Shown in pieces: positions 1,743-37,072 of a DNA stretch of 42,448 nt. This stretch comes from Nemertoderma westbladi (Eukaryota > Animalia > Xenacoelomorpha): contig JAUCBJ010005154.1 of the NCBI GenBank assembly GCA_032718475.1, positions 1-42,448 on the forward strand, written 5' to 3'. A model generated the notes under the pieces. The model was not told where the DNA came from. It saw only the letters and a list, made by a program, of their open reading frames with translations, and did not search any database. A program made the position numbers and the translations under genes. Positions within the stretch are counted from its first letter, which is position 1; the number at the start of each line of letters is the position of its first letter.

Positions 1743-2459
1743 ATTGATAATGACATTGCCGATGCATCGGAACACCTCGACGGTTTAGTGAATGAGCTTG
1801 ATGTAATAGCCCATCGATTCCCTGACTACGGACGAGAGTTCCCCAAGTCGGAGGGTTTCTCCCCGGACGCGTGGATCCAGCAGGCCTTCCAGTTGGCCTA
1901 CTACCGACGGCACGGTCGACTAACCGCCACGTACGAGACGGGTTCAACGCGTCGTTTCAAACTCGGGCGAACCGACACGATCCGGTCCGCATCAGAGTCC
2001 GCGCTGGCGTTCGCGGAGTCAATGGTTGACGCGGTACCGGTCCGTGAGAAACTCCGTCGTCTCAGAGCAGCGGTCGCCGGTCACGTTGAGTTGACGCGAT
2101 GGGCAACGGCGGGGCAGGGAGTTGACAGACACCTCCTTGGGTTGCGAAAGATCGTCTCCGAACTAGGAAGGCCCGTACCGGATGTATTCACAGACTCAGT
2201 CTACGCCCGATCCCTCAATTTTGGGTTATCGACGAGTCAGGTTCCCAGTAGATTTGAGTTGTTCTTCGGTTTCGGTCCTGCTGTTCCCAATGGTTACGGG
2301 GTCTGTTACAACCCCCAGCCTAATTCTATACTCAGTGTTATCTCGTCCAATCGTTCTTGTTCAACTACGGGCTCTGCTGCTATGGGAGATACTATCAGCC
2401 AATCATTGGTCGATATGAAGGATATGCTGATATCAGCTAATAGCAAGTCTCGGTTGTGA
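1743..2459 (+). CDS. CRAT: Carnitine O-acetyltransferase (choline/carnitine acyltransferase family), terminal coding exon; upstream exons lie outside the window
   Basis: Translation IDNDIADASEHLDGLVNELDV...SPDAWIQQAFQLAYYR...TYETGSTRRFKLGRTDTIRSAS...DRHLLGL...LSTSQVP...FGPAVPNGYGVCYNP matches family motifs (STS carnitine motif, GRT, DRHL). The C-terminal SRL is a PTS1 signal, as expected for CrAT rather than ChAT. Pyrimidine-rich acceptor ttccctttcatatttatttag ends at 1742, phase 0 and in frame with ORF 1788-2459. Confidence 0.88.
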   Translation: MDNDIADASEHLDGLVNELDVIAHRFPDYGREFPKSEGFSPDAWIQQAFQLAYYRRHGRLTATYETGSTRRFKLGRTDTIRSASESALAFAESMVDAVPVREKLRRLRAAVAGHVELTRWATAGQGVDRHLLGLRKIVSELGRPVPDVFTDSVYARSLNFGLSTSQVPSRFELFFGFGPAVPNGYGVCYNPQPNSILSVISSNRSCSTTGSAAMGDTISQSLVDMKDMLISANSKSRL

Positions 2460-9000: not shown

Positions 9001-12000
9001 TGTACAGATACACCAACCTAACCAACATAACGGTGTACAGATAAACCAACCTAACCAACGTAACGGTGTACAGATACACCAACCTAACCAACATAACGGT
9101 GTACAGATAAACCAAACTAACCAACATAACGGTGTACAGATAAACCAACCAAACCAACATAACGGTGTACGGTACAGATACACCAACCTAACCAACGTAA
9201 CGGTGTACAGATAAACCAAACTAACCAACATAACGGTGTACAGATAAACCAACCAAACCAACATAACGGTGTACGGTACAGATACACCAACCTAACCAAC
9301 GTAACGGTGTACAGATACACCAACCTAACCAACATAACGGTGTACAGATAAAACAACCTATCCAACATAACGACCAACATAACGGTGTACAGATACACCA
9401 ACCTAACCAACATAACGGTGTACAGATAATCCAACCTAACCAACATAACGGTGTACAGATACACCAACCTAACCAACGTAACGGTGTACAGATACACCAA
9501 CCTAACCAACATAACGGTGTACAGATACACCAACCTAACCAACGTAACGGTGTACATACAGATACACCAACCTAACCAACATAACGGTATACAGATACAC
9601 CAACCTAACCAACGTAACGGTGTACAGATACACCAACGTAACGGTGTACAGATACACCAACCTAACCAACATAACGGTGTACAGATACACCAACCTAACC
9701 AACATAACGGTGTACAGATACACCAACCTGACGGTGTACAGATAAACCAACCTAACCAAAGTATCGGTGTAATGATACACCAACCTAACCAACATAACGG
9801 TGTACAGATACACCAACCTAACGGTGTACAGATAAACCAACCTAACCAACGTAACGGTGTACAGACACACCAACCTAACCAATATAACGGTGTACAGATA
9901 AACCAACCTAACCAACATAACGGTGTACAGATACACCAACCTAACCAACATAACGGTGTACAGATGCACCAACCTAACCAACATAACGGTGTACAGATAC
10001 ACCAACCTAACCAACATAACGGTGTACATATACACCAACCTAACCAACATAACGGTGTACAGATACACCAACCTAACCAACATAACGGTGTACAGATACA
10101 CCAACCTAACCAACATAACGGTGTACAGATACACCAACCTAACCAACAATACAGTGTACAGATACACCAACCTAACCAACATAACGGTGTACAGATACAC
10201 CAACCTAATCAACATAACGGTGTACAGATACACCAACCTAACCAACGTAACGGTGTACAGATACACCAACCTAACCAACATAACGGTGTACAGATAAACC
10301 AACCTAACCAACGTAACGGTGTACAGATACACCAACCTAACCAACGTAACGGTGTACAGATAAACCAACCTAACCAACATAACGGTGTACAGATAAACCA
10401 ACCTAACCAACATAACGGTGTACAGATACACCAACCTAACCAACGTAACGGTGTACAGATACACCAACCTGACCAACATAACGGTGTACAGATAAACCAA
10501 CCTATCCAACATAACGACCAACATAACGGTGTACAGATACACCAACCTAACCAACATAACGGTGTACAGATAAACCAACCTAACCAACATAACGGTGTAC
10601 AGATACACCAACCTAACCAACGTAACGGTGTACAGACACCAACCTAACCAACATAACGGTGTACAGATACACCAACATAACCAACATAACGGTGTACAGA
10701 TACACAAACCTAACCAACATAACGGTGTACAGATACACCAACCTAACCAACGTAACGGTGTACAGATACACCAACCTGACCAACATAACGGTGTACAGAT
10801 AAACCAACCTATCCAACATAACGACCAACATAACGGTGTACAGATACACCAACCTAACCAAAATAACGGTGTACAGATAAACCAACCTAACCAACATAAC
10901 GGTGTACAGATACACCAACCTAACCAACGTAACGGTGTACAGACACCAACCTAACCAACATAACGGTGTACAGATACACCAACCTAACCAACATAACGGT
11001 GTACAGATACACAAACCTAACCAACATAACGGTGTACAGATAAACCAACCTAACCAACATAACGGTGTACAGATACACCAACCTAACCAACGTAACGGTG
11101 TACAGATACACCAACCTAACCAACATAACGGTGTACAGATAAACCAAACTAACCAACATAACGGTGTACAGATACACCAACCTAACCAACATAACGGTGT
11201 ACAGATAAACCAACCTAACCAACATAACGGTGTACAGATACACCAACCTAACCAACATAACGGTGTACAGATAAACCAAACTAACCAACATAACGGTGTA
11301 CAGATACACCAACCTAACCAACGTAACGGTGTACAGATACACCAACCTAACCAACATAACGGTGTACAGATAAACCAACCTAACCAACGTAACGGTGTAC
11401 AGATACACCAACCTAACCAACGTAACGGTGTACAGATAAACCAACCTAACCAACATAACGGTGTACAGATACACAAACCTAACCAACATAACGGTGTACA
11501 GATACACCAACCTAACCAACGTAACGGTGTACAGATACACCAACCTGACCAACATAACGGTGTACAGATAAACCAACCTATCCAACATAACGACCAACAT
11601 AACGGTGTACAGATACACCAACCTAACCAAATTAACGGTGTACAGATAAACCAACCTAACCAACATAACGGTGTACAGATACACCAACCTAACCAACGTA
11701 ACGGTGTACAGACACCAACCTAACCAACATAACGGTGTACAGATACACCAACCTAACCAACATAACGGTGTACAGATACACAAACCTAACCAACATAACG
11801 GTGTACAGATAAACCAACCTAACCAACATAACGGTGTACAGATACACCAACCTAACCAACGTAACGGTGTACAGATACACCAACCTAACCAACATAACGG
11901 TGTACAGATAAACCAAACTAACCAACATAACGGTGTACAGATAAACCAACCTAACCAACATAACGGTGTACAGATACACCAACCTAACCAACGTAACGGT

Positions 12001-12093
12001 GTACAGATACACTAACCTAACCAACGTAACGGTGTACAGATACACCAACCTAACCAACATAACGGTGTACAGATACACCAACCTAACCAACAT
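3054..12093. repeat. 9-kb satellite array, 33-bp unit (CTAACCAACATAACGGTGTACAGATACACCAAC), roughly 275 copies, with higher-order duplications
   Basis: Continuous tandem units. Variant blocks recur at offsets of 906 bp (ORFs 3465/4371), 2992 bp (6459/9451), 307 bp (7603/7910) and 769 bp (10902/11671). Confidence 0.97.
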
Positions 12094-12700: not shown

Positions 12701-13793
12701 AATATATGGAAGCAAAACCACAAGTGGCATAAGTTACCCCACTTGACATTTTCACTTCACAAACACAACCAACGCAGTACAGAAATTATTACCACTTAAA
12801 TTTTGAAATTGGCCTAAGATACCCCACACCACGGTAATTCTCGAGATAATTAAGAATATGTAAGATCTTCTTAACATGTTGAGCTCAATATCCATTGCTC
12901 TCGAACACACTTCAGCCACGTTGTTGCTTTTCATTATTATCAACAAAATCAACTAGAGTTTGTTATTGATTGCTTATTACAGTAGTTGTAACCCAGAATC
13001 AATGCTCTACTGTACCATTCAGCTGAATGGATTTGAGCAATTACTAAGTTACAGAGTGAGCTCTCTCTGACCATAGGCAAATAACATTTTACCCAGCTGA
13101 TAGCTCCTTCCCTCAGAATACAACACAACTCTTGCCCTGGATTCAATGAAAGTGAATGTCTATTACGTACAGAAGGTTCCTGGGAAATCTGGCCTCCTGA
13201 ATGACTTTTTAGTTATACAGTAGTGTACAGGTACAGTTGAGCGCTTGAAAAATGGAATTTTTTTTAAATTTACTATGAACATATTATTCTATTGTTAGTT
13301 GGTCATGGTCACCGGGTTTTACAAACGACGACAATGGAATCACTGATACTGATATGTGGAGGGTAGGTCAAAGGTTAGAATAATACGTATATATATAATA
13401 CGAATAATAATATTGGAAATTGGACTTTTGTAAACAACCTACTGTTGCCATGTTAAAATGTGACATAATTATGTTGAAAAGTTGGTTCCCCTTAAAAAAT
13501 GAAAGGTTTGGTAATTATCTACACCTGTGCCAATTATGATACTTACATCAACCTCACTATTGGAGTTCAGCGACTTAACGAAAGCTACTACTGGATGTTC
13601 GGATTGAATAAATAAAATTAATGTGTTCATGGTTTCTTAGTAACACTTAATCTATGTAATTTCTAGAACGCAGTTAGTTTTTCAAAATCTATGTAATATT
13701 TTATGAAACAGTATGTAGGCTGAGAAACGAGAAGTAATGAGCAAACAACTATGCCCACTGTAAAAACCTTGGGGAAAATGTAACTTGGAAAAA

Positions 13794-14124
13794 ATGGCTA
13801 CCATTTTTGCACCACATGATGGGTCGTTGTGTGGGGATAGCAATAGGGCTACGCCAGAGCCAGACATCCAGAATACAAAGATATGTGCTGAAAGTGAAAC
13901 AATCCCCTTAGACACAGCAGGGGGAGCAGCTGCAAGAAGGGCGCATTTACAATGGCCACCACCACAAGCCCCCTACCACGACCCCTACCGTAGGAGGTAC
14001 TGGGTGTTGGTTATTAATGTGATAGTCATCGTTATTCTCATAATCATAGGATTCTGGCACCTCAATGGTGGAAACAATGATGACCAGGGGGATTTATCTC
14101 AGACTCAGAATTATACAGGATCAG
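13794..14124 (+). CDS. Putative first coding exon of a small single-pass type II membrane protein
   Basis: AAAATGG start at 13794. Basic RRR precedes the hydrophobic stretch YWVLVINVIVIVILIIIGFW, followed by an NYT sequon and a consensus donor CAG|GTAAGT at 14124/14125 (phase 1). GC content is higher than in the flanks. Confidence 0.55.
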
Positions 14125-14531
14125 GTAAGTCTGGAGAGGGTACTAGCATTACTTTCTCATATGGACACCACTTTTTAAATTACTTACTTGTTACGGTCAC
14201 GTATGGGATGGGTTGGGATGGGTACTACTGTGTTTTGAGTAGGCCTCGGCCTACACCCATTCGGCATTACTATGGTATGTATAAGCGAATATTGAAAATT
14301 TTTTGAATTGATTTTAATAATTGTTTTCGTGCATGTAACTATAACATAAAAAGTCAAAATCAGAGACACAATGAGTGATTTCAACTGACAAGAAAAATTG
14401 TTGTGCTAAATTTTATGGTAGCTAGAGTTTTAGATAGGTTTAGCTAGTAATTTCGACACTGGTTCCGACATCCTACTTCCTTGTATAAATATATTGTAGT
14501 AGCTAGTTCTTATTACTATTTGTATAGAAAA

Positions 14532-17019: not shown

Positions 17020-17446
17020 TCTACAAATATTAATGAGATTACATGAAATTTGAAACAGAGATAGTTTCACCTCCCTCCTCCTTAAGGCCATGATACACTA
17101 TAGGAGCCGCGAGCGGCAGCGGCCATTTGCGGTGTATCATCGCCCATAGAGAATAGCTGTGGTGTATCATCGCCCATAGAGAATACCTGTGGTGTATCAT
17201 CGCCCATAGAGAATACCTGTGGTGTATCATCGCCCATAGAGAATAGCTGTGGTGTATCATCGCCCATAGAGAATAGCTGTGGTGTATCATCGCCCATAGA
17301 GAATACCTGTGGTGTATCATCGCCCATAGAGAATACCTGTGGTGTATCATCGCCCATAGAGAATACCTGTGGTGTATCATCGCCCATAGAGAATACCTGT
17401 GGTGTATCATGGCCTTTAGTGGGTGAGTCAGAATTTTTATTTTTAT
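17020..17446. mobile_element. Partial diverged copy of the internal region of the 16340 MITE, interrupted by a Harbinger-type MITE
   Basis: CTACAAAT..TAATGAGATT.CATGAAATTTGAAACA.AGATAGT.TCACCTCCC...TGGGTGA..CAGAATTTTTATTTTT matches 16397-16487 once the insert is removed. Confidence 0.75.
17085..17415. mobile_element. PIF/Harbinger-type MITE (14-bp TIR AGGCCATGATACAC, TTA TSD) carrying a 30-bp minisatellite (~9 copies, 17131-17410)
   Basis: TTA(17082-84)|AGGCCATGATACAC ... GTGTATCATGGCCT|TTA(17416-18). A 3-bp TWA TSD is typical of PIF/Harbinger. Confidence 0.85.
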
Positions 17447-17737
17447 AAGTTATATACAATTTCCTATTAAATATTTGATTTACGTTGGTTTAATAAAAAA
17501 TAGATAGTAAAAGTAAAAATCATTAGTTCAACAAAAATACCTGTATTTACATTGTCTTATACGAAATCAATAACAATGCTTTACACACGGGGAAGGTCTA
17601 AAATACAAGTCGGATAGTTATTGTTATAATTATTTCGTAAATAAATAAGTTTATTATTTATAAGTAATATATATTTTATTAGACACCATTTTATTAAAAT
17701 AAAACCTGAGCACAATATAAAACCCCTCAGCAACCCT

Positions 17738-18319
17738 TCAACTGGAGTTACCGAAATAGGCTGAGGATAACGGGGGTTGTTTATCATTGGTTGTAGCTAT
17801 GGTAACCCTAGGAGAATCTCTGGGAGAGCGGATACGTGTAGAACTAACGGGAATAGCGGTAATTCTAGCATCGCCCGTCCCATTGGTGGGTCTCAACCCG
17901 TCCGCAACCCCCGGGGAGCTCACCCTCAACCCATCCGCGATACCCCCTTGCAGACCCCGCCCTCCCTCGGCGCCGCCCACTGTCCCGGTACTGCGAGTTG
18001 TCTCGTTACTGCGGCCACCCAGCGGCGGCCCCTGGTACAACGCGTGATGCGGTTGTCTAGGTAACGCGACCCTAGATGACCTCTGACTCATCTGGACTTC
18101 GTTAACCTGTCGATTCAACCAGTTAATAACGTCCTCGTTCTTTTTGTTCGTCTCCTGCGATTCATCGAGTTTCCTTTTGTACTCCAGGAGTTCCTCCTGT
18201 ATTCGTCGATGTTGAATTTCCTCGTCTTCCACTCGGCGTTGCAAACGGATATTATCCTCGTTCAGTCTCGATATCTTATCGTCTCGATCAACTAAAACCT
18301 TCTCTTGTTGAGTTACAAC
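17738..18319 (-). CDS. SASS6: Spindle assembly abnormal protein 6 homolog (SAS-6), exon 2 (terminal)
   Basis: Acceptor aatacag|GTTGTA at 18320/18319, phase 0, in frame with ORF 17738-18244. The joined sequence KVKLKNQ|VVTQQEKVL ... KKNEDVINWLNRQVNE matches the conserved end of the SAS-6 coiled coil, followed by a disordered tail. Confidence 0.88.
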   Translation of the reverse strand, partial: VVTQQEKVLVDRDDKISRLNEDNIRLQRRVEDEEIQHRRIQEELLEYKRKLDESQETNKKNEDVINWLNRQVNEVQMSQRSSRVALPRQPHHALYQGPPLGGRSNETTRSTGTVGGAEGGRGLQGGIADGLRVSSPGVADGLRPTNGTGDARITAIPVSSTRIRSPRDSPRVTIATTNDKQPPLSSAYFGNSS

Positions 18320-19717
18320 CTGTATTGAGTTACATTACTAAAGTTAACATAAACATAAATATGGGGAAACTATAGGCCTCCCAGCGGCAAAAATGAACTC
18401 TGTTATTCCGGAAAAAAATTCCGGGGGGTAATTGATTGGAAGTCAACATTTTGAAATTCTGCTCTAAAGTAATATACAAAGTATATAAATATAAAGTAAT
18501 AAACTGTACATAAATAGAAAACAGTATTAAGATACATTTTGGGTGGACTATATATATTGAATTGTAATATATTAAAAAAAATCGTTTTTGACGCCCCCTA
18601 GCGGACACAGCCAAAATATATAATTTTGGATTTGTTGTAACCTGATTTTTTTGGAATCAGCATAGTCGATTACATGAAAAAAATAGAGCATAATTTTTTT
18701 TCAAAGAAAATACAGCTATTTTCAAAATCATTTTTAAAAAAGCACTGCCTTTTTCGTAAAAAGTGAACAATTGAACAATTATTGCAAAACTAAAAAAAAA
18801 TCTCGAATTTTATTATTGCGCTTTCATTTATTACTGCTTTATTACTTGCTATTATTACTGCTAGCTACTGCTAGCTTTCATTTGATACGAAAAACTTATA
18901 AATTGGTTGAAAAATGGCGGAGGAGTAGTAATTTAAAAATGATGAAATGCCATTCCGAGATAATTGCTATTAAAGTTTCGAGCCAAACTGTCTATTAATA
19001 TCTAAGAATGTCTGTCAATACATATCTATCTAGCAACAAGAAAGCACAACACCGTGCCAATATTTTTGCTACGGGGGTTTTCCTGGTCGCAGATTTCATT
19101 TCTGAGGTTAGTTTTTACTCTTATTAATGAAATATAGTTAGTCAGTATGAATGTCTGTATGTCTATCTGACTGACCAACAATCTGGCCGTCAAATATAAG
19201 TAAAGGGCACACAATCTGCCTATAGGGGTTTATCTGGTCGAGGAATTCATTTTGAGGACCAGTTTTAACATTTAATGACTTCAAAATTGGCTGTTTGGCT
19301 GTCTGTTATATTTGACGGACAGAATGACAGTCATACAGGCAGAAACAACGGGGTCAAATTTGAATACTAAAATGGGAAATTAACTCAACCAAGAAAACTC
19401 ATATAGGAAAGTTTTAGGCAAACAGTATGCTTTCTATTGCTTTGGAGACATATTGACGGACAGACTGACAGTCAAACGGAGAGACAGCCATATCTCGAGA
19501 AGTTATAGAGATATTGCTAAACGGTTTTGAAATTTGAATCTTTATAAAAATCTGGTCTAGATGAAATTAAAAAAATAAGTACAAAAAACAAAGTTACGGT
19601 ACCGTACCGGTAACTACTCCTGCTAGGAACTTTTATACAAAAGGTTTCAATTTCAATTATTAGGCCTAAATGTGCGGTAAAATGCATTTGAGTACTGGTA
19701 ATGTACTATATACCATC

Positions 19718-20234
19718 ACTACACGAAGTGGGGACTTCGCGCAGCACGAAGTTGGCAGAGCCTTAGCGAATTGACACTGTTAGGGGGTAGGTCAATTTAT
19801 GCAAATAGTCACGTTGGCCCTCTAGCGGCAGACTGGAGAACTGCAGATGGATTCGCCTCCTTTGAAAGTCACAGCTAATGGTCTAATACATATCTGCCAA
19901 GTTTCAGCTTAAACGGATTAAAAGCAAAGAAATGGGAGGGCATTTAATGTTTAGACATGTGGCCCTCTAGCGGGAGACCATTGCACTGATGGTGTCTGAA
20001 AGTCTCTCAAAAATCTCAACTTTTGCTCATATTGATACCTACAAATTTTCAACTTGGCAGCTTTAAATCCGACAAAGTTATTAGCATGTCAAAATCGTAA
20101 CGACGACGACGACGACAACGACGACGACGACGACAACGACGACGACGACAACTATTTGCATAAATTGACCCACCCCCTAACAGTGTCAATTCGCTAAGGC
20201 TCCGCCAACTTCGTGGCTCGCCCCACAACACTAA
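19718..20234 (-). mobile_element. Non-autonomous Helentron-associated element (HINE/DINE-1-like)
   Basis: 65-bp subterminal inverted repeats at 19745-19809 and 20151-20215 (2 mismatches), a (GAC)n microsatellite at 20101-20150 just inside one arm, and a short terminal hairpin CGAAGT-GGGG-ACTTCG at 19724-19739 outside the other. This is the known HINE layout. Confidence 0.7.
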
Positions 20235-20479
20235 AGCATTGACCTGTTAAATTACATTCTGAAGTACTGCTGACTAAACCATTTAACAGTGTCATTAATT
20301 AATTAATTCATAATAATTAATAATTAAATGCTTGAGTTAAATGAATTAAAATAATTAATTCATAATAATGCTAGTGGTTGATTATGTTATACGCATGTCC
20401 TTAGACCATCATGATAAAAGATGGGGTGAGGGTAACACACCCTACAGGCTCAAGAAGTCGAGTAAATCCATCCAAGTAT

Positions 20480-21275
20480 CCTATTAGGATACCTAAAGAC
20501 ATTGCTAATATTTAGGATTACTGACAGAATCACTCCTTAGAAGGAGCCCAGAGGTTGAACTCATTGGTGCAGGCGGCTGCTTCTAGTCTTGGTCTTTTTG
20601 TAAACACCAAGAAGACCAAAATGTTGACGGTTAACTTCGACAATCCGCAGAAATATCTGATCTTATGATGATCATAAACTCCAAGGATGGTGAATTGAGC
20701 ATGTGGATGACTTCTGCTATATACTAAGGATGAATTCCAGGTCCTTATCATGGATCCGGAAGTCAGGTGAAGACCTTTTGATACGCAAGGGGAAGCCATG
20801 ATCAGCATCAGCATTGAATGGGCTGACCAGGATTAGAAAGCTGGATTTGAATCAAATAAATAAAATAAAATGCTGTTCGGTCATTTAGAGCAGCATCAGA
20901 ACTAGTACTCCTTTGTATGTGGGTGCCCTCGCTGGGTCCTAACAACGGCTGATGAATGCTACGTCAGGTACATTGTGTCAAGTATAATGAACTCATCTCC
21001 AACCAAACACAGTATTATAACAACATTGGAGCTTGGAGGTGTCTCATTGGACCCCCCAAGCCTAAGGTTGACACTTGAACGGAGCCGCCTCCACTTCGCA
21101 GGACATTACCTTCGCCGTGAGGACCAGCCAGTGCGTAATCTTGTACTTAGGTAGCACCCATGGAGAAAATAAGCACTTTCTTAGACGCCTCTTAAAGGAC
21201 ACTGGCCTAAAAGATGCAGATAATCTCGAGAAAGTCATGGGGGATAGGGAACTGTTGCGGCGCAACTTTGTTGAT
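20480..21275 (+). pseudogene. Decayed 3' part of an RTE/RTEX-like non-LTR retrotransposon (RT thumb and C-terminus), antisense to SAS-6
   Basis: Fragmentary translations AQRLNSLVQAAASSLGLFVNTKKTKMLTVN (~20545-20635), FRAASELVLL (~20885), FAGHYLRREDQPVRNLVL (~21095) and RLLKDTGLKDADNLEKVMGDRELLR (~21185-21260) occur in the usual RTE ORF order, separated by stops and frameshifts. Confidence 0.75.
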
Positions 21276-21744
21276 ATGATAAACCAAAATAACATTTTTA
21301 ATATATTTAAATGCTGCATCCTTTAGTGGTCGATAAATGGGAACCAAGGCAAGTTGGGAAACAGAGTGGAGGGGTTCACTGTGGAAGATCACCCATGGTG
21401 GCTTAACGAGTCTAAAATATTCTCCCATTCATTCAATATATTTAAATGTATCTTTAAACTATGTATAATGCAGCATACCGATAGTAGTAGTACAGGGTTG
21501 ACTACCTTGTAGTAGTAGTAGCAGTAAAAGCATATTTAATAGTATAGTTGTAGTCCAGGCTAGCATATAAATAAAGGAAAATGATATATCCGAGAACAAA
21601 AAGGGATACAGGGGAAGAAGGAACCGCTGGGAGGCCAGAAAATAAGGACATTGTAAAAGGCCTTGTCACATGAATATTTATGTCAACATGACAGTGATAT
21701 AAACGTAAAAATGGGAAGGTAACGGTATTCATTTTGATAAATTT

Positions 21745-21953
21745 CGCCATCTACCGGCAGACCTGAGAACTGCTCCCACACAATGACACATCTATTGGCC
21801 TCGTACCGTACGTAACTACGTAAGTTTCAGATTGAAAGGATTAAAAGCAAACAAATAGAGGGACATTTAGCCCTCTAGCGGATCTAGAGGAATCTTGAAT
21901 TGGTGTCTGAAAGTGTGAAAAGAAATCTCAACTTTGCTCCTGTTGATGTCTAC
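21745..21953 (-). mobile_element. Diverged internal fragment related to the 19718-20234 element
   Basis: Shares AAGTTTCAG.TT.AA.GGATTAAAAGCAAA, GCCCTCTAGCGG, TGGTGTCTGAAAGT and AAATCTCAACTTT in the same order as 19817-20043. Confidence 0.65.
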
Positions 21954-21979
21954 ATCTCGTCTCGACTACTAATCACTTA

Positions 21980-22520
21980 AACCTGGTTTAGTAGTTCCAT
22001 GTTCTAACGCGGTTCCGTTTAACTGGTTCTTTAGTTCTACGTTCCCCACGCCGTTCCCCCTACCTGGTTCTTTAGTTATAAGTTCCTCACGCCGTTCCAC
22101 CTAAATGTTTTTTTAGTTCTACGTTCCCCACGCCGTTCTCCCTACCTGGTTCTTTACTTCTACGTTCCTCACGACGTTCCACCTACCTGGTTCTTTAGGT
22201 TTACGTTCCTCACGCCGTTCTCCCTACCTGGTTCTTTAGTTCTACGTTCCGCACGCCGTCCCATCTACCTGGTTCTTTAGTCCTACGTTCCTCACGCCGT
22301 TCTCCCTACCTGGTTCTTTAGTCCTACGTTCCTCACGCCGTTCCCCCTACCTGGTTCTTTAGTTCTACGTTCCTCACGCCGTTCCACCTACCTGGTTCTT
22401 TAGTCCTACGTTCCTCACGCCGTTCCCCCTACCTGGTTCTTTAGTTATACGTTCCTCACACCGTTCCACCTACCTGGTTCTTTAGTTATACGTTCCTCAC
22501 GCCGTTCCCCCTACCTGGTT
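21980..22520 (-). repeat. 41-bp minisatellite (~13 copies) whose unit includes the SAS-6 exon 1 splice donor
   Basis: Minus-strand unit GTAGGGGGAACGGCGTGAGGAACGTAGAACTAAAGAACCAG; period 41 (22142, 22183, ...). Copies degrade away from the exon. Confidence 0.92.
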
Positions 22521-23729
22521 TTTTAACTTCACCTTCTGCGCGGCGTTCCGCAGTTCGTTCTGCTGCCGCTTTATTATCTCGTTGGCCTTAATGAGGTCGT
22601 CCGCGGTTGATCGAACGCTTGACTCGAGTTTGTTTACCAACTCGAGTCGCTGTTCGCAGAGCCGTTCCGCCTGACGTTTCTGTTCAGCTGTCGACTCCAA
22701 CAGCAGCCCAGTGGATCTGAGAACCTCCGACTTGTCTTTAACCTCCTGTTCCAGAACGGCGACGCGCGTTCTGTACCCGTTGGCTTCCCGTTGGGATTCC
22801 GCTACACCGTTCCGCAACTCGACCAGCTGTTCCTTCGCGTCTGTGGCCTCGTTCCGCGTACGTTCCGCCTCGTTCCGCGCCGCGTCCAACCGACCCGAGA
22901 GGTCCCGCACCTCCGACTCGCTGGCGTACCGGGATTCCGTCAGCTGGTTGCCGGACTCCTCCAACTCGCGAATCCGTCGCTCTTGCTGCCCGATAACCAA
23001 CTCGAGTTTGGTGGAGACCTCCAGTCGCTCCCTATCGCCAACGGTCCGCAGGTCGCCTAGGGCCGCCACGTAGCGCTCTTTTTCCGCCGCTAATTCCGCC
23101 GCCGATTCAGACCGTAGTTTGGCGCCCTGGGTCGTCCAATCAGAACGGAGTTCCGCTAACTGCGAAGACTTCTCCGCTAACTCCGACTCCCGAAGTCGTA
23201 GTCGTTCCGATAACTCGCCTCTCGTCGAATCTAGAACACGCGACAACTCGCCGCACTCTAGCTTGAGACTCAGCAAACACCCCGCAAGGTATTTCTTTAA
23301 ATCCGAGTCGTTGGCCGCGCGGAGTCGCAGACTCAAATGGGTGAGGTGTTTAAAGGGGTTCGTCTCGACAACGTTAAGGAAACCGCCTCCTAAAGCGATA
23401 CTGAGGAACTTTAGGATGAACTTTGGGTTCTCGGTGCTGTGCTGATCGCGACAAATCTTTAAGAGTTCGATTAATTTAGTCGGAAAGGAAGGGAAGTCTA
23501 CAAGAAGTCCTTGTTCAGATTTCAGTATGTGGAAGTCGTCTTCGCCAAGGTTTATTATGTAGAGGTAGTATGGATCGTTCTCCGACGTTAGTCGGAGAAT
23601 CAACTCCTTTCGATGGGACGGTGTGTCGGTCGTCTGAACCTCCATGTTAACGTTAATTGTTTGTTGACGTTCGATTCCTTCTACTGTTACCAGAGTTATG
23701 TTTATTGCACTGCTATACAGATTCTCCAT
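22515..23729 (-). CDS. SASS6: SAS-6 exon 1 (N-terminal head/PISA domain plus coiled coil); full protein ~598 aa
   Basis: ATG at 23729 (MENLYS). Motifs RLTSENDPYYLY, EDDFHILKSEQGLLVDFPSFPTKLIELL and LNVVETNPFKHLTHLSLRL are diagnostic of the SAS-6 head. A long coiled coil follows; donor at 22515/22514, phase 0. Confidence 0.93.
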
Positions 23730-24354
23730 ATCAAAAATGACACCGAAGCTCAACGTTCAACTTTTTCAACGTTTATGTTCAATTTGCTATATAAATACTG
23801 AAATAAGGTACCGGTAACTGACGGGCTGACGGGTATTTACGATACGATGTTAAATTACGATGAAGTAATATTAAAAAATTATTTGTAATCTTTTGTAAAC
23901 GAATAATGTTAATTGTTTTTGTATTCCCATGGTTTTGAACCGACTGACAACTACATAACTACTGTACCGGTACTGTAAGAAATCGAGGTTGCTTAATGTT
24001 AGATATTTCACCTGCTAGCGGTGGTTAAATTCACATATTTTGATCGTATTTAATGTCCGGTCCTACGAATTACCCCGAAATACCCCAAAACACCAAAAAT
24101 CAAACTCAGGATTTATTAAGTTAAAGGCGACAAAAACTTATGACGAATTATTGTGAATTAATATATAATATAATTATATATGGCAGTAGTATTTGTTAAT
24201 TAACTAAACCCAATACAAATGGTGTCAAATGGTAACAAATAACACCAGACATTAGTGAATATGACAATATAATTGTGATTTACCTGTTTAATACGCAAGG
24301 AGTAGGCAGGCTGCAGGCCTAAGTAAAATTTCCAAGTAATAAAAGTGATTTCCC

Positions 24355-26316: not shown

Positions 26317-28889
26317 CTGCTACCCGAAGGTAGGGCTGGGCGCTACTCCTGTCTGCTACCCGAGGGTAGGGGTGGGCGCTACTCCTATCTGCTACCCGAG
26401 GGTAGGGGTGGGCGCTACTCCTATCTGCTACCCGAAGGTAGGGGTGGGCGCTACTCCTATCTACTACCCGAAGGTAGGGGTGGGCGCTACTCCTATCTGC
26501 TACCCAAGGGTAGGGCTGGGCGCTACTCCTATCTGCTACCCGAAGGTAGGGGTAGACGCTACTCCTATCTGCTACCCGAGGGTAGGGGTGGGCGTTACTC
26601 CTATCTGCTACCCGAAGGTAAGGGTGGGCGCTACTCCTATCCGCTACTCCTATCTGCTACGCGAGGGTAGGGGTGGGCGCTACTCCTATCTGCTACCCGA
26701 GGGTAGGGGTGGGCGCTACTCCTATCTGCTACCCGAGGGTAGGGGTGGGCGCTACTCCTATCTGCTACCCGATAGTAGGGGTGGGCACTACTCCTATCTG
26801 CTACACGAGGGTAGGGGTGGGCGCTACTCCTGTCTGCTACCCGAAGGTAGGGGTGGGCGCTACTCCTATCTGCTACCCGAGGGTAGGGGTGGGCGCTACT
26901 CCTATCCGCTACTCCTATCTGCTACCCGAAGGTAGGGGTGGGCGCTACTCCTATCTGCTACCCGTGGGTAGGGGTGGGCGCTACTCCTATCTGCTACCCG
27001 TGGGTAGGGGTGGGCGCTACTCCTATCTGCTACCCGAAGGTAGGGGTGGGCGCTACTCCTATCTGCTACCCGAAGGTAGGGGTGGGCGCTACTCCTATCT
27101 GTTACCCGAAGGTAGGGGTGGGCGCTACACCCATCTGCTACCCGTGGGTAGGGGTGGGCGCTACTCCTATCTGCTACCCGAAGGTAGGGGTGGGCGCTAC
27201 TCCTATCTGTTACCGAAGGTAGGGGTGGGCGCTACTCCTATCTGCTACCCGAAGGTAGGGGTGGGCGCTACTCCTATCTAATACCCGAGGGTTGGGGTGG
27301 GCGCTACTCCTATCTGTTACCCGAGGGTAGGGGTGGGCGCTACTCCTATCCGCTACTCCTATCTGCTACCCGAAGATAGGGGTGGGCGCTACTCCTATCT
27401 GCTACCCGAAGGTAGGGGTGGGCGCTACTCCTATCTGCTACCCGAGGGTAGGGGTGGGCGCTACTCCTATCTGCTACCCGAGGGTAGGGGTGGGCGCTAC
27501 TCCTATCTGTTACCCGAGGGTAGGGGTGGGCGCTACTCCTATCCGCTACTCCTATCTGCTACCCGAAGGTAGGGGTGGGCGCTACTCCTATCTGCTACCC
27601 GAGGGTAGGGCTGGGCGCTACTCCTATCTGCTACCCGAAGGTAGGGGTAGACGCTACTCCTATCTGCTACCCGAAGGTAGGGGTGGGCGCTACTCCTATC
27701 TACTACCCGAAGGTAGGGGTGGGCGCTACTCCTATCTGCTACCCAAGGGTAGGGCTGGGCGCTACTCCTATCTGCTACCCGAAGGTAGGGGTAGACGGTA
27801 CTCCTATCTGCTACCCGAGGGTAGGGGTGGGCGTTACTCCTATCTGCTACCCGAAGGTAAGGGTGGGCGCTACTCCTATCCGCTACTCCTATCTGCTACC
27901 CGAAGGTAGGGGTGGGCGCTACTCCTATCTGCTACCCGTGGGTAGGGGTGGGCGCTACTCCTATCTGCTACCCGTGGGTAGGGGTGGGCGCTACTCCTAT
28001 CTGCTACCCGAAGGTAGGGGTGGGCGCTACTCCTATCTGCTACCCGAAGGTAGGGGTGGGCGCTACTCCTATCTGTTACCCGAAGGTAGGGGTGGGCGCT
28101 ACACCCATCTGCTACCCGTGGGTAGGGGTGGGCGCTACTCCTATCTGCTACCCGAAGGTAGGGGTGGGCGCTACTCCTATCTGTTACCGAAGGTAGGGGT
28201 GGGCGCTACTCCTATCTGCTACCCGAAGGTAGGGGTGGGCGCTACTCCTATCTAATACCCGAGGGTTGGGGTGGGCGCTACTCCTATCTGTTACCCGAGG
28301 GTAGGGGTGGGCGCTACTCCTATCCGCTACTCCTATCTGCTACCCGAAGATAGGGGTGGGCGCTACTCCTATCTGTTACCCGAAGGTAGGGGTGGGCGCT
28401 ACTCCTATCTGCTACCCGAAGGTAGGGGTGGGCGCTACTCCTATCTAATACCCGAGGGTTGGGGTGGGCGCTACTCCTATCTGTTACCCGAGGGTAGGGG
28501 TGGGCGCTACTCCTATCTGCTACCCGAAGATAGGGGTGGGCGCTACTCCTATCTGTCACCCGAAGGTAGGGGTGGGCGCTACTCCTATCTGCTACCCGAA
28601 GGTAGGGGTGGGCGCTACTCCTATCTGTTACCCGAAGGTAAGGGTGGGCGCTACTCCTATCTGCTACCCGAAGATAGGGGTGGGCGCTACTCCTATCTGT
28701 TACCCGAAGGTAGGGGTGGGCGCTACTCCTATCTGCTACCCGAGGGTAGGGGTGGGCGCTACTCCTATCTGCTACCCGAGGGTAGGGGTGGGCGTTACTC
28801 CTATCTGCTACTCGAAGGTAGGGGTGGGCGCTACTCCTATCCGCTACTCCTATCTGCTACCCGAAGATAGGGGTGAGCGCTACTCCTAT
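26317..28889. repeat. GC-rich minisatellite, 36-bp unit (CTGCTACCCGAAGGTAGGGGTGGGCGCTACTCCTAT), ~70 copies, with a 974-bp higher-order duplication
   Basis: Direct tandem units; identical variant blocks at ORFs 26938 and 27912; occasional 13-bp CCGCTACTCCTAT insertions. Confidence 0.96.
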
Positions 28890-31270: not shown

Positions 31271-32593
31271 AGTTTATGCTATTATTCGCAACATTCATAT
31301 CCCCAAGTTTATTCCTACAGTAATTGTGCTTGTTATACATACCGTTATAGTTAAACTAACTCCGGTACTACATCAGGGCTGCTCGGCGTAGGTAAAGACT
31401 GGAGATTTTATGCTTTGGTCACTCCGGCAGATACCGTGGTTCTTTTAGCTGTTCAAGTATTTTTAACTACTGATTATTTGTTGTACAAGTACTTGTACCT
31501 AATTTAGGGTTTAGTGTACAGTGCTTTCCGAAGGTAATTAGCGTGTAGGCAGTATATTTGTGTTGTAAAGTGGTTAATAGGCACGTTGGTTCTGGTAGAC
31601 CGCGGTAATTAACTTCTGGGTAGGAACACTCCGTGATACATAACGTAGTACTTATAGCGATACGGCTATAAGTCGTCAGACGGTGGTATTTTCCTATCTG
31701 GACAACGCAGTATATTTACTACTACTTATTATTTTCAAATACCGTAGTACTCTGTCTGTTGTAATAACCAGATATTCTAACCCTTTGTTAGGCTGGTTTG
31801 TAGACTTCTTGTAAAATTACCCTAAAAATTCGTACTTGTAAATTTTTGTGTTTATTTAGAGATTGTAATCTCAACCCGAATTGTACGTAATTTGTAGTAT
31901 TAAGTAACTTAGGTAAATTAGAATTATTTGTTTTAGTGTCCAACAAGTAGCACTCCACTGAGAGCGCACAGCTTCTGTGTAGTGACTCCCCCAGAAATAA
32001 TAACATTTATTTCAAATATTGACAAAAACCCATTAAACGGGTATATATATTATAAATCAACTCAAACGATTTATAAATAGTAGGCCTGCCATACAACAAC
32101 TAGGTCTCAATATCAGTTGGACTACTGCTTAAATAACGGTAATAAAGTAAGTAAAGTAACCAAGTAACCCCTAAAATTTCAGAAATTCAATTATTCCAAA
32201 ATAATTGACATACCGGTATTCACGATAGGCTTATTATATTTATTTCTATAAATTTAGGCTGAAATCATACCGGTATTCTGTAATTAATTCTAGTTCATAA
32301 TTATACTTATATATATTCTATAAGTGTAAGCTGTATACCGGTATTCACGATAGGCCTATTATATATTTATATATATTTGTGCTGAAATTGCATACCGGTA
32401 TTCTGTGACAAACCTAGTCTGTAATAATACTTATATATACTATAAGCATACCGGTATTCTAATATATTGTATATATATCACATTACATAGAGTAACGATA
32501 TCGGTAATTAATTACTAGGCTAACAGTGATACTGAATTACTAGACTTGCTTTAACTGTAATATAGCAGTAGGCATTCAACTGTACAATCAAAC

Positions 32594-34084
32594 ATGTCTG
32601 ACTCACAACAAACACTGTCAGATAGTCTCATAGAAAGTGTTAGAATGACTGTTAGACAGTGTCTTAAAAAGATCTGTGACCAAGATCAAAGTATAGAACA
32701 TCCCAGACCAAAGTCTAAGTCCCCTCCTACTGTAAGAAAGGCCATCCCTACAGTAGTAGTGTCAGACCCTAGACTAGTAGAACACCGTAGGTCTATCATA
32801 GGCACTAGAGCTCAGGTCAAGCGGGACCAAGAAGTAGCGAAACAGCAACCACCCGCGAGCCGAGAACTTATTTCTCAACGGCCCGACAGCTCCAGTAGTG
32901 AGGATACTGTAGAGCTGACACCCGAGCGCGGAGCAAAGATGACGGATGCGGTTTATTCGGATCCCCTTCTCATCCTTCCTGCAGCCGTACTCACTAGGGT
33001 ATTGATTGCGGTGGAAGAACACCAGATCGATTGGGCGAGAAGTAAGCGATCGACTAAAGATAGTTATGCGGGATACACAAGGGAAGAACTGAAGTCTATT
33101 GTCGAGTCGCAATGGAACTTCCCCGGACCCGGACTCCCGTTTGATTTATCAGAAGCTGCCTGGGAAGATATACACAGGATGGGAGTAACCAAGGAAACCA
33201 TCGATCCAGCTGTGTGGAAGAGGTCCGCAGCCGGATACATACAGGGATTCGTCAGCTCTATGGAGCGATTAGAAAAACAACTGTTTCAACAACCCCAAGG
33301 ACCTCAAGAGCAGGGACAGCTGCTTTATCAAGTTAGAGAAAGAATTCTACGAATCAGGCTAATCTTATCGGCCTTTGAGGAGGCTTCTAAAAGAAGACAA
33401 GACACGTCGTTGCAAGTTGCCGTAAAGACTTGGTTTCAACGGGTGAGCCTCCAGGTGCAAGGAACGACTCAGTGGAAAGCCCAGCTGGATGAACGCTCAA
33501 CCCATGGAGAATCAACAGACGCTACTTTTTCCCAAGTGGAAAGTGAAGCGGCGGCAGAGAAGCCGCATAAGAGGGATGCCATTGACATCTATCTGTCGGA
33601 CTATCAACGTTTTGTAGGAGATGAAGAGTTGAGGAGAAGACTAGAGGGGCTTAGCCCTAATAGTGAAGGAGCCCAGCGTGTGTTGGACGCAATCGATGTG
33701 GATAGGTTAGCTGCGAACCAAGCTAAATTCAATGAAAGCATCCGCATCGCTAAGGTTCAAGAAGAACAAGTAAAGAAAAAACGTATAGAAGATAGAAAGA
33801 CAGCAGCAGCGACAGTGGCAGCGGCAGAAGCGGATAGAAAAGCGGCAGAAGCAAAAGCGGCAGCTGCAGCAGCCGAAGCGGAAAGAAAAATAGCAGTGGC
33901 AGAAGCAGAACGGAGGGCATCTAAAGAGACAACCCAACTAGAGTTGGAAAATCTTCAAGAGAGGCAAGACAACTTTAATAAACAGTTAACAGCTAGTAAT
34001 ATGCAGATGATGAATCGATTTACTCCCAAAAGACAAGGTTATACATCATCTGAGGAAGGCGATCCACCAGAGGCGGGTAAATGA
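32594..34084 (+). CDS. Element ORF1, 496 aa, unknown function, C-terminal Ala/Glu/Lys coiled coil (possibly a separated Gag N-terminal region)
   Basis: Uninterrupted ORF with CAAACATG start context; no domain recognised. Confidence 0.75.
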   Translation: MSDSQQTLSDSLIESVRMTVRQCLKKICDQDQSIEHPRPKSKSPPTVRKAIPTVVVSDPRLVEHRRSIIGTRAQVKRDQEVAKQQPPASRELISQRPDSSSSEDTVELTPERGAKMTDAVYSDPLLILPAAVLTRVLIAVEEHQIDWARSKRSTKDSYAGYTREELKSIVESQWNFPGPGLPFDLSEAAWEDIHRMGVTKETIDPAVWKRSAAGYIQGFVSSMERLEKQLFQQPQGPQEQGQLLYQVRERILRIRLILSAFEEASKRRQDTSLQVAVKTWFQRVSLQVQGTTQWKAQLDERSTHGESTDATFSQVESEAAAEKPHKRDAIDIYLSDYQRFVGDEELRRRLEGLSPNSEGAQRVLDAIDVDRLAANQAKFNESIRIAKVQEEQVKKKRIEDRKTAAATVAAAEADRKAAEAKAAAAAAEAERKIAVAEAERRASKETTQLELENLQERQDNFNKQLTASNMQMMNRFTPKRQGYTSSEEGDPPEAGK

Positions 34085-35784
34085 TCTCGCTAAGCAGACG
34101 TAAAAGAATGTCCCACCGTCAGAAATTGCCTGATTTGCCCCCAGCTGTTAGAAGGCAACTAAATAACACAAACTTAGGTAGTACAGAACCCACAGACCAA
34201 ATAATTAAAATAGAAAGACTCCCTACTATAGTAGATGAGCCTGAAATAATTAGGCCTGTTCTTGAAATCACCCCTTCGGTGATAGAGACACCTGTACTCC
34301 CAGAACCTACCTTTAAATTCCCTTTACACAGCACCAAATTATCTGTGCCTAGAGGAACAGCCCCTGAAACAGTGTCGGTCCTGGACTCCGAGCGAAATAT
34401 AAAGGATATATCGCCCGTAGTCCCTCGTCTGCCCGCTACGACGTTGGCGGATCCCGCTTCGGCGGTTGATTGGGTAGACGAGAGACGGCGGGAGATGGAC
34501 ATTCTCCTCGGAGAGATGAAGGAGAATCGAGTGCGCTCCTCCCAACAGGTCCGAGAGTTAGAAGGGACTGTTCAACAGTTAAAGGGAACCGTAAAGGAAA
34601 GTAGGTTAGAGTTGCAAGAAGTGCAGCAAAGTATCGCGCTAGAACGCGATAAATTAGTAAATTTACAAAAGGGTATATCACCACCCTCTGTAACAATATG
34701 TCAACCCGTTAGGTCTGAAGTATCTCATGCGCAAGGTGTGGAGCCTACACGCATCTATACTGCTAGCGAAGTAGAAACTCCTATAGTAAACCCTATTAAG
34801 GGTAATTATAGACCTGTTGATAGTGATATTCCCTATAGACCTGATCATAATCCGAGAAATTTATATACCGATAACTCGATATTAAATAACACGATGGCCC
34901 AAGAAAGTTTTACGCGTCAAATGGCTAGAACCGAAGCCCGCCAAGCGGTAAAGGTGGGAGAGATAGTCAAGTTCAATGGAGATGAGATGAAATGGTTACC
35001 TTTTAATGAATATTACAAAGATAACATACAGAACTCTGTGCTATCTAATGGAGAGAAACTTAGATTCCTCATCGAGTGCTTGGAAGGATCTCCCAAGTTA
35101 ATGGCGTTAAAGTTTATTGGACATCCAGACGGATTAAGACAAGTTTGGGATACACTAAACATCAGGTATGGTAATAGGAATAACATAGCTGGGTATTTGT
35201 ATGCAAAGTTGGTAGCGCCCCGAAAGTTTATTAGCAGCGGGATTATAGAGTTTTCCGATGAGATTCAGGAGATCTGCAGACAATTAGATTGGCTAGGTAA
35301 GTCTCATGAGTATCAGAGTGCTATGGTTATTAGAGCAGTGGCTTCTACTTTACCGAAGGGTGGAGTAGGTACACGCTGGGACAAGAAAGTGTTATATATG
35401 ATGGAACAACAACAACGAGACCCTACCATGGCTGATCTCATGTCATTCTTGGATGGCGAAGTGAAATTACAGCTCATAAAGCAGTCCAGAGAGAAGACAC
35501 CGGAAAACAAGGTAAGTGAGAAACCCGTCTCTAGGAGAAAGGTAACACCAGTGTGTTATACAGACGACGGCGAAAGCCAGACTTCTCAAGGAGAGGATAG
35601 CGGGAAAGACACTGAAAGATCTTATTATGTCAATAAAACGCCTAAAGAACAGGTAAGTAAATTCAAGTCTCGAACCAATGACAGGAGAGAACAGGTAAGA
35701 AAAACTCCTCCTACGTCTCCCAAGAGAATTCAGGTGAGAAAGCCCGAAGAAAGAACGAGTGTGCACAACTGTTACTCAAAGTAA
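34081..35784 (+). CDS. gag: BEL/Pao Gag (coiled coil plus DUF1759-like capsid region), 567 aa
   Basis: KFNGDEMKWLPFNEYYKDNIQNSVLSNGEKLRFLIECLEGSPK...VWDTLNIRYG and PTMADLMSFLD match BEL/Pao Gag motifs. Confidence 0.85.
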   Translation: MISLSRRKRMSHRQKLPDLPPAVRRQLNNTNLGSTEPTDQIIKIERLPTIVDEPEIIRPVLEITPSVIETPVLPEPTFKFPLHSTKLSVPRGTAPETVSVLDSERNIKDISPVVPRLPATTLADPASAVDWVDERRREMDILLGEMKENRVRSSQQVRELEGTVQQLKGTVKESRLELQEVQQSIALERDKLVNLQKGISPPSVTICQPVRSEVSHAQGVEPTRIYTASEVETPIVNPIKGNYRPVDSDIPYRPDHNPRNLYTDNSILNNTMAQESFTRQMARTEARQAVKVGEIVKFNGDEMKWLPFNEYYKDNIQNSVLSNGEKLRFLIECLEGSPKLMALKFIGHPDGLRQVWDTLNIRYGNRNNIAGYLYAKLVAPRKFISSGIIEFSDEIQEICRQLDWLGKSHEYQSAMVIRAVASTLPKGGVGTRWDKKVLYMMEQQQRDPTMADLMSFLDGEVKLQLIKQSREKTPENKVSEKPVSRRKVTPVCYTDDGESQTSQGEDSGKDTERSYYVNKTPKEQVSKFKSRTNDRREQVRKTPPTSPKRIQVRKPEERTSVHNCYSK

Positions 35785-37072
35785 GGTAAGTAACATCAAA
35801 CCAAAATGTGTGCTGTGCGACGGGCCCCACCGTTTGAATATGTGTGATAAATTCCTAAAGAAATCATTAAAGGATAGACGTGAAGTCATGTGGGATAAGC
35901 GGTTGTGTTATAATTGCCTCAGACGAGGACACCAACGGCGAACCTGTTACTCCGACGCAAGGTGTGCAAAGTGCGGCGCAAAACATCATATCTTGTTGCA
36001 CACGGAATTCGAACGAAACAGCCCGAGTCAGGTAAGTGAGTCCGAACTACATGTCCAATTCAGTGATGTGAACGACACTGACCAATATTCTGAGATGGAA
36101 GGATTCTATACGGACGAATTCTCCGACGAAAACGAATCCTGTTACCTGACAAATACCGCAGTGTATCGAGCACTTACGTATGAAAAGGACACCGACAGCG
36201 AGCTCCCCCTAACTACTTCTGACAGACAACCATCTTGGAAAGCACCAACTTCCAATGTAGGAATCCGAGAATTTCCTGTAGTACAGTTAAGGGTCCACGG
36301 ACCTACAAGGAGTTATATAGTGAACGCCCTCCTTGACTCCGGTAGCACAGGAACATTCATCGACAAAGAACTAGCCGAAGACATCTTTGCTGGACAACCC
36401 AAGTTCCGAACTAAGCTAAACATGTCAGGAATTATGCAGGTTTGGAAATCTACCGTAATAGCGGATTATTATGTAGGCGCGTTGTCCACCCCCCAGGATG
36501 AACTAGGAGAACACAGCATAAGGTCAGTAAAAATGGTAGCGATAAAGAACTTCGCGACCAGCCAAGTGGAACCTTATAACTGGGATGAGGACGATTTCAC
36601 CCAGCAGCTTGAAATACCTAGATTCAACACCGATTACCCTGGAGTCCAAATACTCATCGGTCAAAATGCGCATGAAGCGCTCGAGACATTGGAGAAACGG
36701 CCTGCTCAACCGCAACCACTACAAGTCTATGCGGGAAGAACTAGAGTAGGTTGGTACTTTACTGGCCCTTCTCGTAGAACTCTTATGGAAAGATTACCAA
36801 AAGAACAGGTATATCAATTAAGTGAACGGGAAGTGGAGAGCAGTGAAGTTGACGACCCAACTGAGGGAACACCATACTCCTCAGATAATGACGACATCAA
36901 CTCCAATGTAGATCAATGGAGACATTGCCCCGAGACGATCAATCTAGCCGACATCGCCTCCAGAGGAGCAACTCCTCAAGAACTGACAGATACTCCAGAC
37001 TGGTTAGGTGGACCCGACTTCCTAAGTAAAGAAGATGAATGGCCTCCCCATCTTACCCCGGCTGAAGATTAG
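35759..37072 (+). CDS. Gag zinc knuckles plus aspartic protease, fused in frame to a Pao RNase H C-terminal remnant; +1 frame relative to gag
   Basis: CVLCDGPHRLNMC, CYNCLRRGHQRRTC and CAKCGAKHHILLH; VNALLDSGSTGTFI and VQILIG; QWRHCPETINLADIASRG...WLGGPDFL...WP. No ATG at the 5' end (the track start is GTG). Confidence 0.85.
   Translation: MCTTVTQSKVSNIKPKCVLCDGPHRLNMCDKFLKKSLKDRREVMWDKRLCYNCLRRGHQRRTCYSDARCAKCGAKHHILLHTEFERNSPSQVSESELHVQFSDVNDTDQYSEMEGFYTDEFSDENESCYLTNTAVYRALTYEKDTDSELPLTTSDRQPSWKAPTSNVGIREFPVVQLRVHGPTRSYIVNALLDSGSTGTFIDKELAEDIFAGQPKFRTKLNMSGIMQVWKSTVIADYYVGALSTPQDELGEHSIRSVKMVAIKNFATSQVEPYNWDEDDFTQQLEIPRFNTDYPGVQILIGQNAHEALETLEKRPAQPQPLQVYAGRTRVGWYFTGPSRRTLMERLPKEQVYQLSEREVESSEVDDPTEGTPYSSDNDDINSNVDQWRHCPETINLADIASRGATPQELTDTPDWLGGPDFLSKEDEWPPHLTPAED

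Follow-up and report, generated by a model that had tools for sequence, protein, structure and literature searches.

The SAS-6 gene and its intronic array

The window, that is, the whole 42,448-nt stretch of Nemertoderma westbladi DNA analysed here (contig JAUCBJ010005154.1), carries on its minus strand a gene that we assign by sequence as the SAS-6 orthologue, with a head domain followed by a coiled coil. Coding exon 1 (22515..23729) runs from the ATG at 23729 to Gln405 and encodes, in 405 uninterrupted residues, the head domain together with the greater part of the coiled coil. It is defined by its open reading frame and translation, Pfam, homologues, and contigs of the sequencing runs X4 and X5. 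Pfam SAS-6_N was found in this exon above the cut-off (E 2e-30), together with a weak match to Sas6_CC (E 4.7e-05, below the cut-off). The protein search gave 242 matches; among the 120 listed, the best are animal SAS-6 proteins with about 40% identity (top 41%), and all 120 contain both domains. Coding exon 2 (17738..18319, minus strand; Val406 to the stop codon) continues a conserved motif and is joined to exon 1 in contigs, which results in a spliced product of 598 aa.

The exon 1/exon 2 junction lies inside the motif KLKN-x-V-x-x-Q-Q-E-K, which aligns with the homologues without gaps. In the 120 listed homologues, K399 and N404 are each conserved in 120 sequences, K403 in 117, and L402 in 116, and no isoform gap starts or ends near residue 405. 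The literature yielded no exon borders of human SASS6 close to the junction; the available part of one report gives the borders of exon 4 as c.207-311 (PMC12210447). Upstream of the ATG, an 8-nt insertion at 23807 is present in X2 and X4, not in X3, and is likely a polymorphism. About 320 bp beyond the stop codon lies a 30-bp array (17131-17414; 9.5 copies at 98%).

The two exons are separated by an intron of 4195 nt (18320..22514, minus strand), which is delimited by the contig joint and, past the array described below, consists mostly of dispersed repeats according to the depth tables and self-BLAST. The donor, CAG|GTAGGG (22509..22517, minus strand), has its last exon base at 22515 and is in phase 0. 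At the acceptor (18308..18334, minus strand), the last intron base is 18320, and an exact 10-nt direct repeat occupies each side (18334-18325 and 18317-18308). The intron also holds a MITE-like element of ~470 bp (19745-20215) with 65-bp inverted ends that are 97% identical and with very high depth in the DNA-like runs; positions 21822-21954 hold a degraded fragment of this family.

Tandem Repeats Finder (TRF) reports an array at 21981-22525 with a period of 41, 13.3 copies, and 86% matches. With the register set at the first intron base (22514, minus strand), it resolves into twelve homogenised 41-bp units (22023..22514), each composed of the 6-nt intron start and 35 exon-like nucleotides and matching the consensus at 36-40 of 41 positions. 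They are followed by a degenerate distal unit of 40 nt (21983..22022, minus strand), which matches unit 4 at 29/41 with one gap and ends in AAACCAG followed by GTTT. AACCAG|GTAG is intact at 10 of the 13 downstream junctions and CAG|GT at 11, in line with the initial annotation, which counted about a dozen decoy donors, most with this motif. The head-to-tail arrangement, the unit length within the 10-100-bp size of minisatellites, and the reiteration of the donor within the intron make the array a donor-reiterating ('mirage') minisatellite, a class already known. A narrow literature search combining SAS-6 and minisatellite found no paper on this locus.

Five of eight sequencing runs contain the stretch, and none is recorded as RNA; X6-X8 share almost no words with it, X1 may be the source of the sequence, and X2-X5 were compared over 17600-23900. 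X2 and X3 come from one sample (S2), cover 30 of 30 bins, and behave as DNA. An X3 contig (22491-23899) connects exon 1 to unit 1 with 16 differences, and an X2 contig (21508-22052) extends across the flank and reaches the distal units. Since both ends of the array are recovered in DNA-like runs of another sample, the array is not an assembly artefact; no contig listed spans it as a whole.

Tandem duplication is frequent here, as seven arrays of at least 150 bp together occupy 32% of the window. The remaining arrays give no impression of an origin at a splice junction: four of the five other units checked lack AGGT[AG]; the 36-bp unit has one such site, with no exon identified beside it. This 36-bp unit, which has 13-bp sub-repeats, builds a GC-rich array of 2.5 kb at 26317-28889. 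A 9-kb satellite (3054-12093; 274 copies of 33-bp units) contains long open frames in both orientations, a feature that its period, a multiple of three, probably explains. The plus strand carries retrotransposon-like frames in successive reading frames at 32561-37069, including DUF1759 at 34081-35781, a domain that we take to be typical of BEL/Pao elements, as well as a weak amino-acid-permease match at 13764-14303 (E 2.6e-4, below the Pfam cut-off). The last exon of a choline/carnitine acyltransferase gene (1743-2456, plus strand; Pfam E 1.7e-74) comprises 238 uninterrupted codons. This second long exon suggests an intron-poor genome, and the locus as a whole points to a genome that is intron-poor and rich in minisatellites.

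Derivation of the repeat unit

The unit had been described as about 35 nt of the exon end plus the first 6 nt of the intron, and both the register and the alignment agree with this composition. The last 35 coding nucleotides (22515..22549, minus strand), from which the exon-like portion of the unit derives, match the unit consensus at 25/35 positions without gaps, which reproduces the value first given; the single units 1-12 match at 23-25/35. The next-best match of the unit elsewhere in the window on both strands reaches 21/35, no other place in exon 1 gives more than 20/35 when every one of the 41 rotations is tried, and none of 200,000 shuffles attained 25/35. Without the terminal AACCAG, the unit and the exon still agree at 19/29 positions, and the homology ends at -35. 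The likeness between the unit and the exon end is not due to chance.

Since the exon end codes for conserved residues, it was the exon that gave rise to the repeat, rather than the other way round. The 10 differences between the exon and the unit are distributed 3/3/4 over codon positions 1/2/3, suggesting that most of them arose in the unconstrained copy. The units diverge from their own consensus by 5.9% (mean pairwise 10%) and from the exon by 29%, so the seed is old and the homogenisation recent. The proposal of a junction-spanning duplication that expanded and homogenised while the coding copy stayed constrained is upheld by the stop of homology at -35, the conserved residues, the codon positions, and these two divergences.

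We also considered that the unit might belong to a dispersed, transposon-derived family and resemble the exon by chance. In its favour, the array depth in X2 (119-190, as against about 9-56 in the unique flanks) would allow for a longer allele or for a small number of related loci. In X3, however, the array depth of 17-37 equals the unique depth, and across the DNA-like runs the array reaches 17-190 versus ~1e5, three orders of magnitude more, for the true dispersed repeats of the same intron. Although depth is not copy number, this contrast excludes a high-copy family. No second copy of the unit occurs in the window on either strand, so that within the window and in the run depths the unit gives no high-copy sign of the kind expected if it lay at many unrelated loci. 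Together with the agreement in the exact junction register, unmatched elsewhere in the window and by the shuffles, these observations make a dispersed origin scarcely credible.

We consider it likely (probability about 0.7) that the minisatellite unit consists of the SAS-6 exon end plus six intron bases, that it goes back to one duplication of the junction followed by slippage or unequal exchange, and that the array has no function. In this course of events, one tandem duplication across the splice junction would have seeded the unit, and the array would then have expanded by slippage or unequal exchange. The seeding duplication would be much older than the last homogenisation, as the divergences of 29% and 5.9% imply, and the repeat copy would have drifted freely with the exon presumably held by protein constraint.

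Use of the most upstream donor

X4 (study P3) and X5 (study P2) are both listed as 'DNA?'. Contigs of both runs join 22515 to 18319 and skip 4195 nt with GT..AG ends, at depths of 586 in X4 and 14.7 in X5. Because they combine exon-only cover with this joint, X4 and X5 are likely RNA-derived. The exon-1 contig of X4 stops at 23825, and the DNA-like contigs continue beyond it. In the bin 22453-22663, the depth is wholly accounted for by the spliced contig in both runs (230.6 in X4 and 10.5 in X5). The X4 joint spans the array, and no X4 contig falls in the bins 22031-22452; missing X4 and X5 cover in unique intron parts was counted only since the contig joins across. X4 also leaves the true exon 1 bare at about 22596-22674, which indicates that holes in coverage can have technical causes. 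Two X5 contigs lie inside the array (22294-22388, depth 15.8; 22335-22446, depth 26.8), at a depth of at least that of the spliced contig (14.7), and could represent nascent RNA, background DNA, or decoy products.

At the contig level, therefore, where rare forms are invisible, the most upstream donor predominates in both runs; its joining at 22515 in two studies also disposes of the doubt whether the true donor might lie elsewhere. No decoy joint appears among the 15 joints listed of 278, and contigs lose rare forms. A donor-like AAG|GTGAAG within the exon (22527-22535, minus strand), in frame and 18 nt upstream of the true donor, coincides with the position of an intron in two homologous loci described below; the same 15 of 278 joints hold no use of it.

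Scored against what we take to be the donor consensus, the decoys at 22473, 22391, and 22186 reach 8/9 and the true donor 7/9. The upstream donor is taken though these three downstream copies fit the consensus better, and this ranking speaks against silent decoys. Across the units, the donor columns carry 3 changes in 96 and the other columns 26 in 396 (P 0.24), so no selection on the pseudo-donors was detected as excess conservation of these columns. Every decoy donor is predicted to yield a product of 410 aa instead of the 598 aa of the normal splice. The initial annotation was correct that any decoy would truncate the protein, but it placed the TGA within five codons; the in-frame TGA of unit 1 is the sixth codon past the donor, after five sense codons. 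For the unit 1 decoy, the stop lies 23 nt ahead of the new junction, and under the 50-nt rule of nonsense-mediated decay, the product of this first decoy could escape decay. Any rare products of the second and later decoys would be cleared by the same pathway.

The closest known system is the human F7 intron 7 VNTR with a 37-bp unit, for which the accessible part of Borensztajn et al. 2006 describes pseudo-sites that are competent but unused (PMC1557585). As in SAS-6, unit 1 of F7 straddles the exon-intron boundary, copies of the donor recur in the intron, and splicing takes the donor that lies furthest upstream. The composition differs: the F7 unit has 4 nt of exon and 33 nt of intron in 5-9 identical copies, whereas SAS-6 has 35 + 6 nt in 13 copies whose exon-like part is 29% diverged from the exon. 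Polymorphism and the competence of the pseudo-sites were demonstrated in F7, while the SAS-6 array is known from sequence and contigs. The downstream SAS-6 donors may, by analogy with what was demonstrated in F7, be competent yet outcompeted by the most upstream one. The same source, as far as its available text goes, lists junction-spanning minisatellites with 10-25 reiterated donors, like SAS-6, in 6-16 intron 2, CBS intron 13, LMNB2, and PDGF intron 4 (PMC1557585). LMNB2 and PDGF use the true site alone, matching the SAS-6 contigs; 6-16 and CBS, unlike these contigs, use two pseudo-sites besides the true one, the nearest ones, which counts against decoys that are silent throughout.

Invertebrate counterparts are the amphioxus 'mirages' in Adh3 and the globins BflGb6 and BflGb9, which, in the parts of the report available, are minisatellite-like boundary duplications that leave regular splicing undisturbed (PMC3087553). 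They share with the SAS-6 array a concerted evolution that spares the boundary unit. In contrast to them, the SAS-6 array sits on an apparently lineage-specific intron in a gene otherwise stripped of introns. With the SAS-6 array, this documented class gains a further animal, and the array follows the rule that, among several equal donors, the first one is used.

The number of centrioles is controlled by the SAS-6 level, according to the available part of another study (PMC9009770), and it had been suggested that the array tunes this dosage through decoy use. In such a rheostat, the decoys would divert transcripts to truncated or degraded forms, and the array length would set the SAS-6 dose. 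The 10 intact pseudo-donors, three of them closer to the consensus than the true donor, the predicted stop of every decoy product at 410 aa, the array-matching contigs of X5, and the use of pseudo-sites in 6-16 and CBS would fit this idea. On the other hand, X4 and X5 both join the first donor, without decoy joints among the 15 of 278 listed; the donor columns have no excess conservation; and in F7, as far as the available text of the report shows, the pseudo-sites fail to compete even when strengthened (PMC1557585). With the first donor joined as in human F7, the dosage claim found no support, and a functional rheostat appears very unlikely. Because splicing takes the first donor, the array is likely functionless, and we regard it as most likely neutral.

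Intron position and a possible duplication scar

A scan of metagenome contigs gave nine SAS-6 loci, of which three (L003, L006, and L008) are genomic and cross the junction. L003 is vertebrate-like by sequence, L006 and L008 are probably animals, and all three are distant taxa. The comparison left out L001 (intronless over residues 22-645 and transcript-like), L002 (ending at 215), and L004, L005, L007, and L009 (ending at 162). One junction of L008 was unfound, and several far-off junction calls are approximate as short exons were missed. In the numbering of the window gene, L003 has an intron after residue 381. In L006 and L008, a phase-0 intron follows residue 399, which places it six codons or 18 nt upstream of the window intron, and none of the three loci has one after residue 405. 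The frame P0121, the one match among 17 shorter-protein candidates, reads across the junction with unrelated flanks. Positions common to two or three loci (102, 222, 261, 351, 399, 441, and 468) are all missing from the window gene. Since these shared positions are absent, the gene lost ancestral introns, and the one intron in its coding region was probably gained or shifted. We consider the host intron probably a lineage-specific gain, judging from three distant loci. The unit spans both sides of the 399 site, so the array was seeded after the 399 intron had gone.

A shift would mean that the L006/L008 intron moved 18 nt downstream, by partial duplication or cDNA-templated repair, with the array forming later at the new donor. 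The phase-0 intron six codons upstream and an AG (CTTTAG) that ends exactly 18 nt ahead of the used acceptor are what this would produce. However, the 18 nt before the acceptor are unlike the six codons expected as their source, and the 18-nt spacing was noticed post hoc. All other positions of the three loci are missing too, and for the 399 intron simple loss is therefore what one would expect. A shifted ancestral intron is accordingly an improbable explanation.

The alternative of a gain leads to a more tentative idea, a fossil of intron birth. After ancestral loss, coding DNA over the Gln-Val CAG|GT would have been tandemly duplicated, giving both donor and acceptor. The array would have grown from the duplicated junction, and an exon-2-like stretch beyond it would be the remainder of the duplicate. 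This reading concerns the origin of the intron and is compatible with silent decoys now. The donor and the acceptor both read CAG|GT, five letters that could be placed on either side of the joint. L003, L006, and L008 lack the intron position, P0121 is uninterrupted across the junction, and the unit covers the 399 site and hence postdates the absence of that intron. The mechanism works in cells, as described in the part of PMC3265369 available.

The putative remnant is a stretch just past the array (21957..21982, minus strand) with a weak similarity to the exon 2 start. Positions 21972-21957 and 18295-18279 match in 15 of 17 columns; the match was spotted by eye, before lengths and gap costs were set. 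When the 30 nt past the array were compared with the exon 2 start under four scoring schemes, equally good scores came from 4-18 of 11,862 segments scanned across the window, from none of 785 coding windows, and from 6-25 of 3000 shuffles. The start-anchored score was exceeded by none of 700 null sites in two schemes. These positional nulls are low and give the resemblance weak support, although the match is post hoc, seen first and tested later. Longer alignments of the stretch were discounted, as they extend into the dispersed repeat at 21822-21954.

Several results weaken the fossil reading. Unanchored BLAST of the intron against the coding sequence gave nothing at the array end better than E 5, the 9-mer core of the match has a further occurrence in exon 1 (extended to a 10-mer, CDS 361-370), and the six intron bases of the unit match the exon 2 start at 3/6 (GTAGGG vs GTTGTA). 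In the available parts of two reports, the tandem-duplication model has an intron with an exon-2-like 5' end and an exon-1-like 3' end (PMC3443670, PMC3265369). The SAS-6 intron resembles introns born in this way in having CAG|GT at both ends, a position absent in homologues, and a possible exon-2-like remnant near the 5' end. It differs from them in its 3' end, where no exon-1-like remnant is detectable (score 10, with 557 of 703 null windows as good). In addition, the gain itself rests on three distant loci. That SAS-6, stripped of its ancestral introns, obtained its only coding intron by duplication of coding DNA at the Gln-Val CAG|GT, with the array and the exon-2-like stretch as the preserved scar, is thus a possible but doubtful origin.

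If true, it would be an intron born from a coding-DNA duplication, of which traceable natural cases are few. Repeat expansion has been linked to new introns (PMC2812944, PMC2395259; accessible portions), and for the amphioxus 'mirages' it was proposed that they can give rise to new intron positions (PMC3087553). In the available part of that report, the proposal comes without a direct example of this form, and the SAS-6 intron would then be a natural case tying mirage repeats to intron gain.

At the acceptor, an exact 10-mer straddles the splice site (18334-18325/18317-18308), a length reached by 38 of 2806 adjacent non-tandem windows. The 10-nt direct repeat and the AG 18 nt upstream of the acceptor may represent a second small junction-spanning duplication. 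Three intron positions (after residues 381, 399, and 405) fall within 24 codons, with the introns of the homologous loci at L003:4805-4899, L006:3706-4033, and L008:4538-4619, which suggests intron turnover in this stretch of SAS-6.
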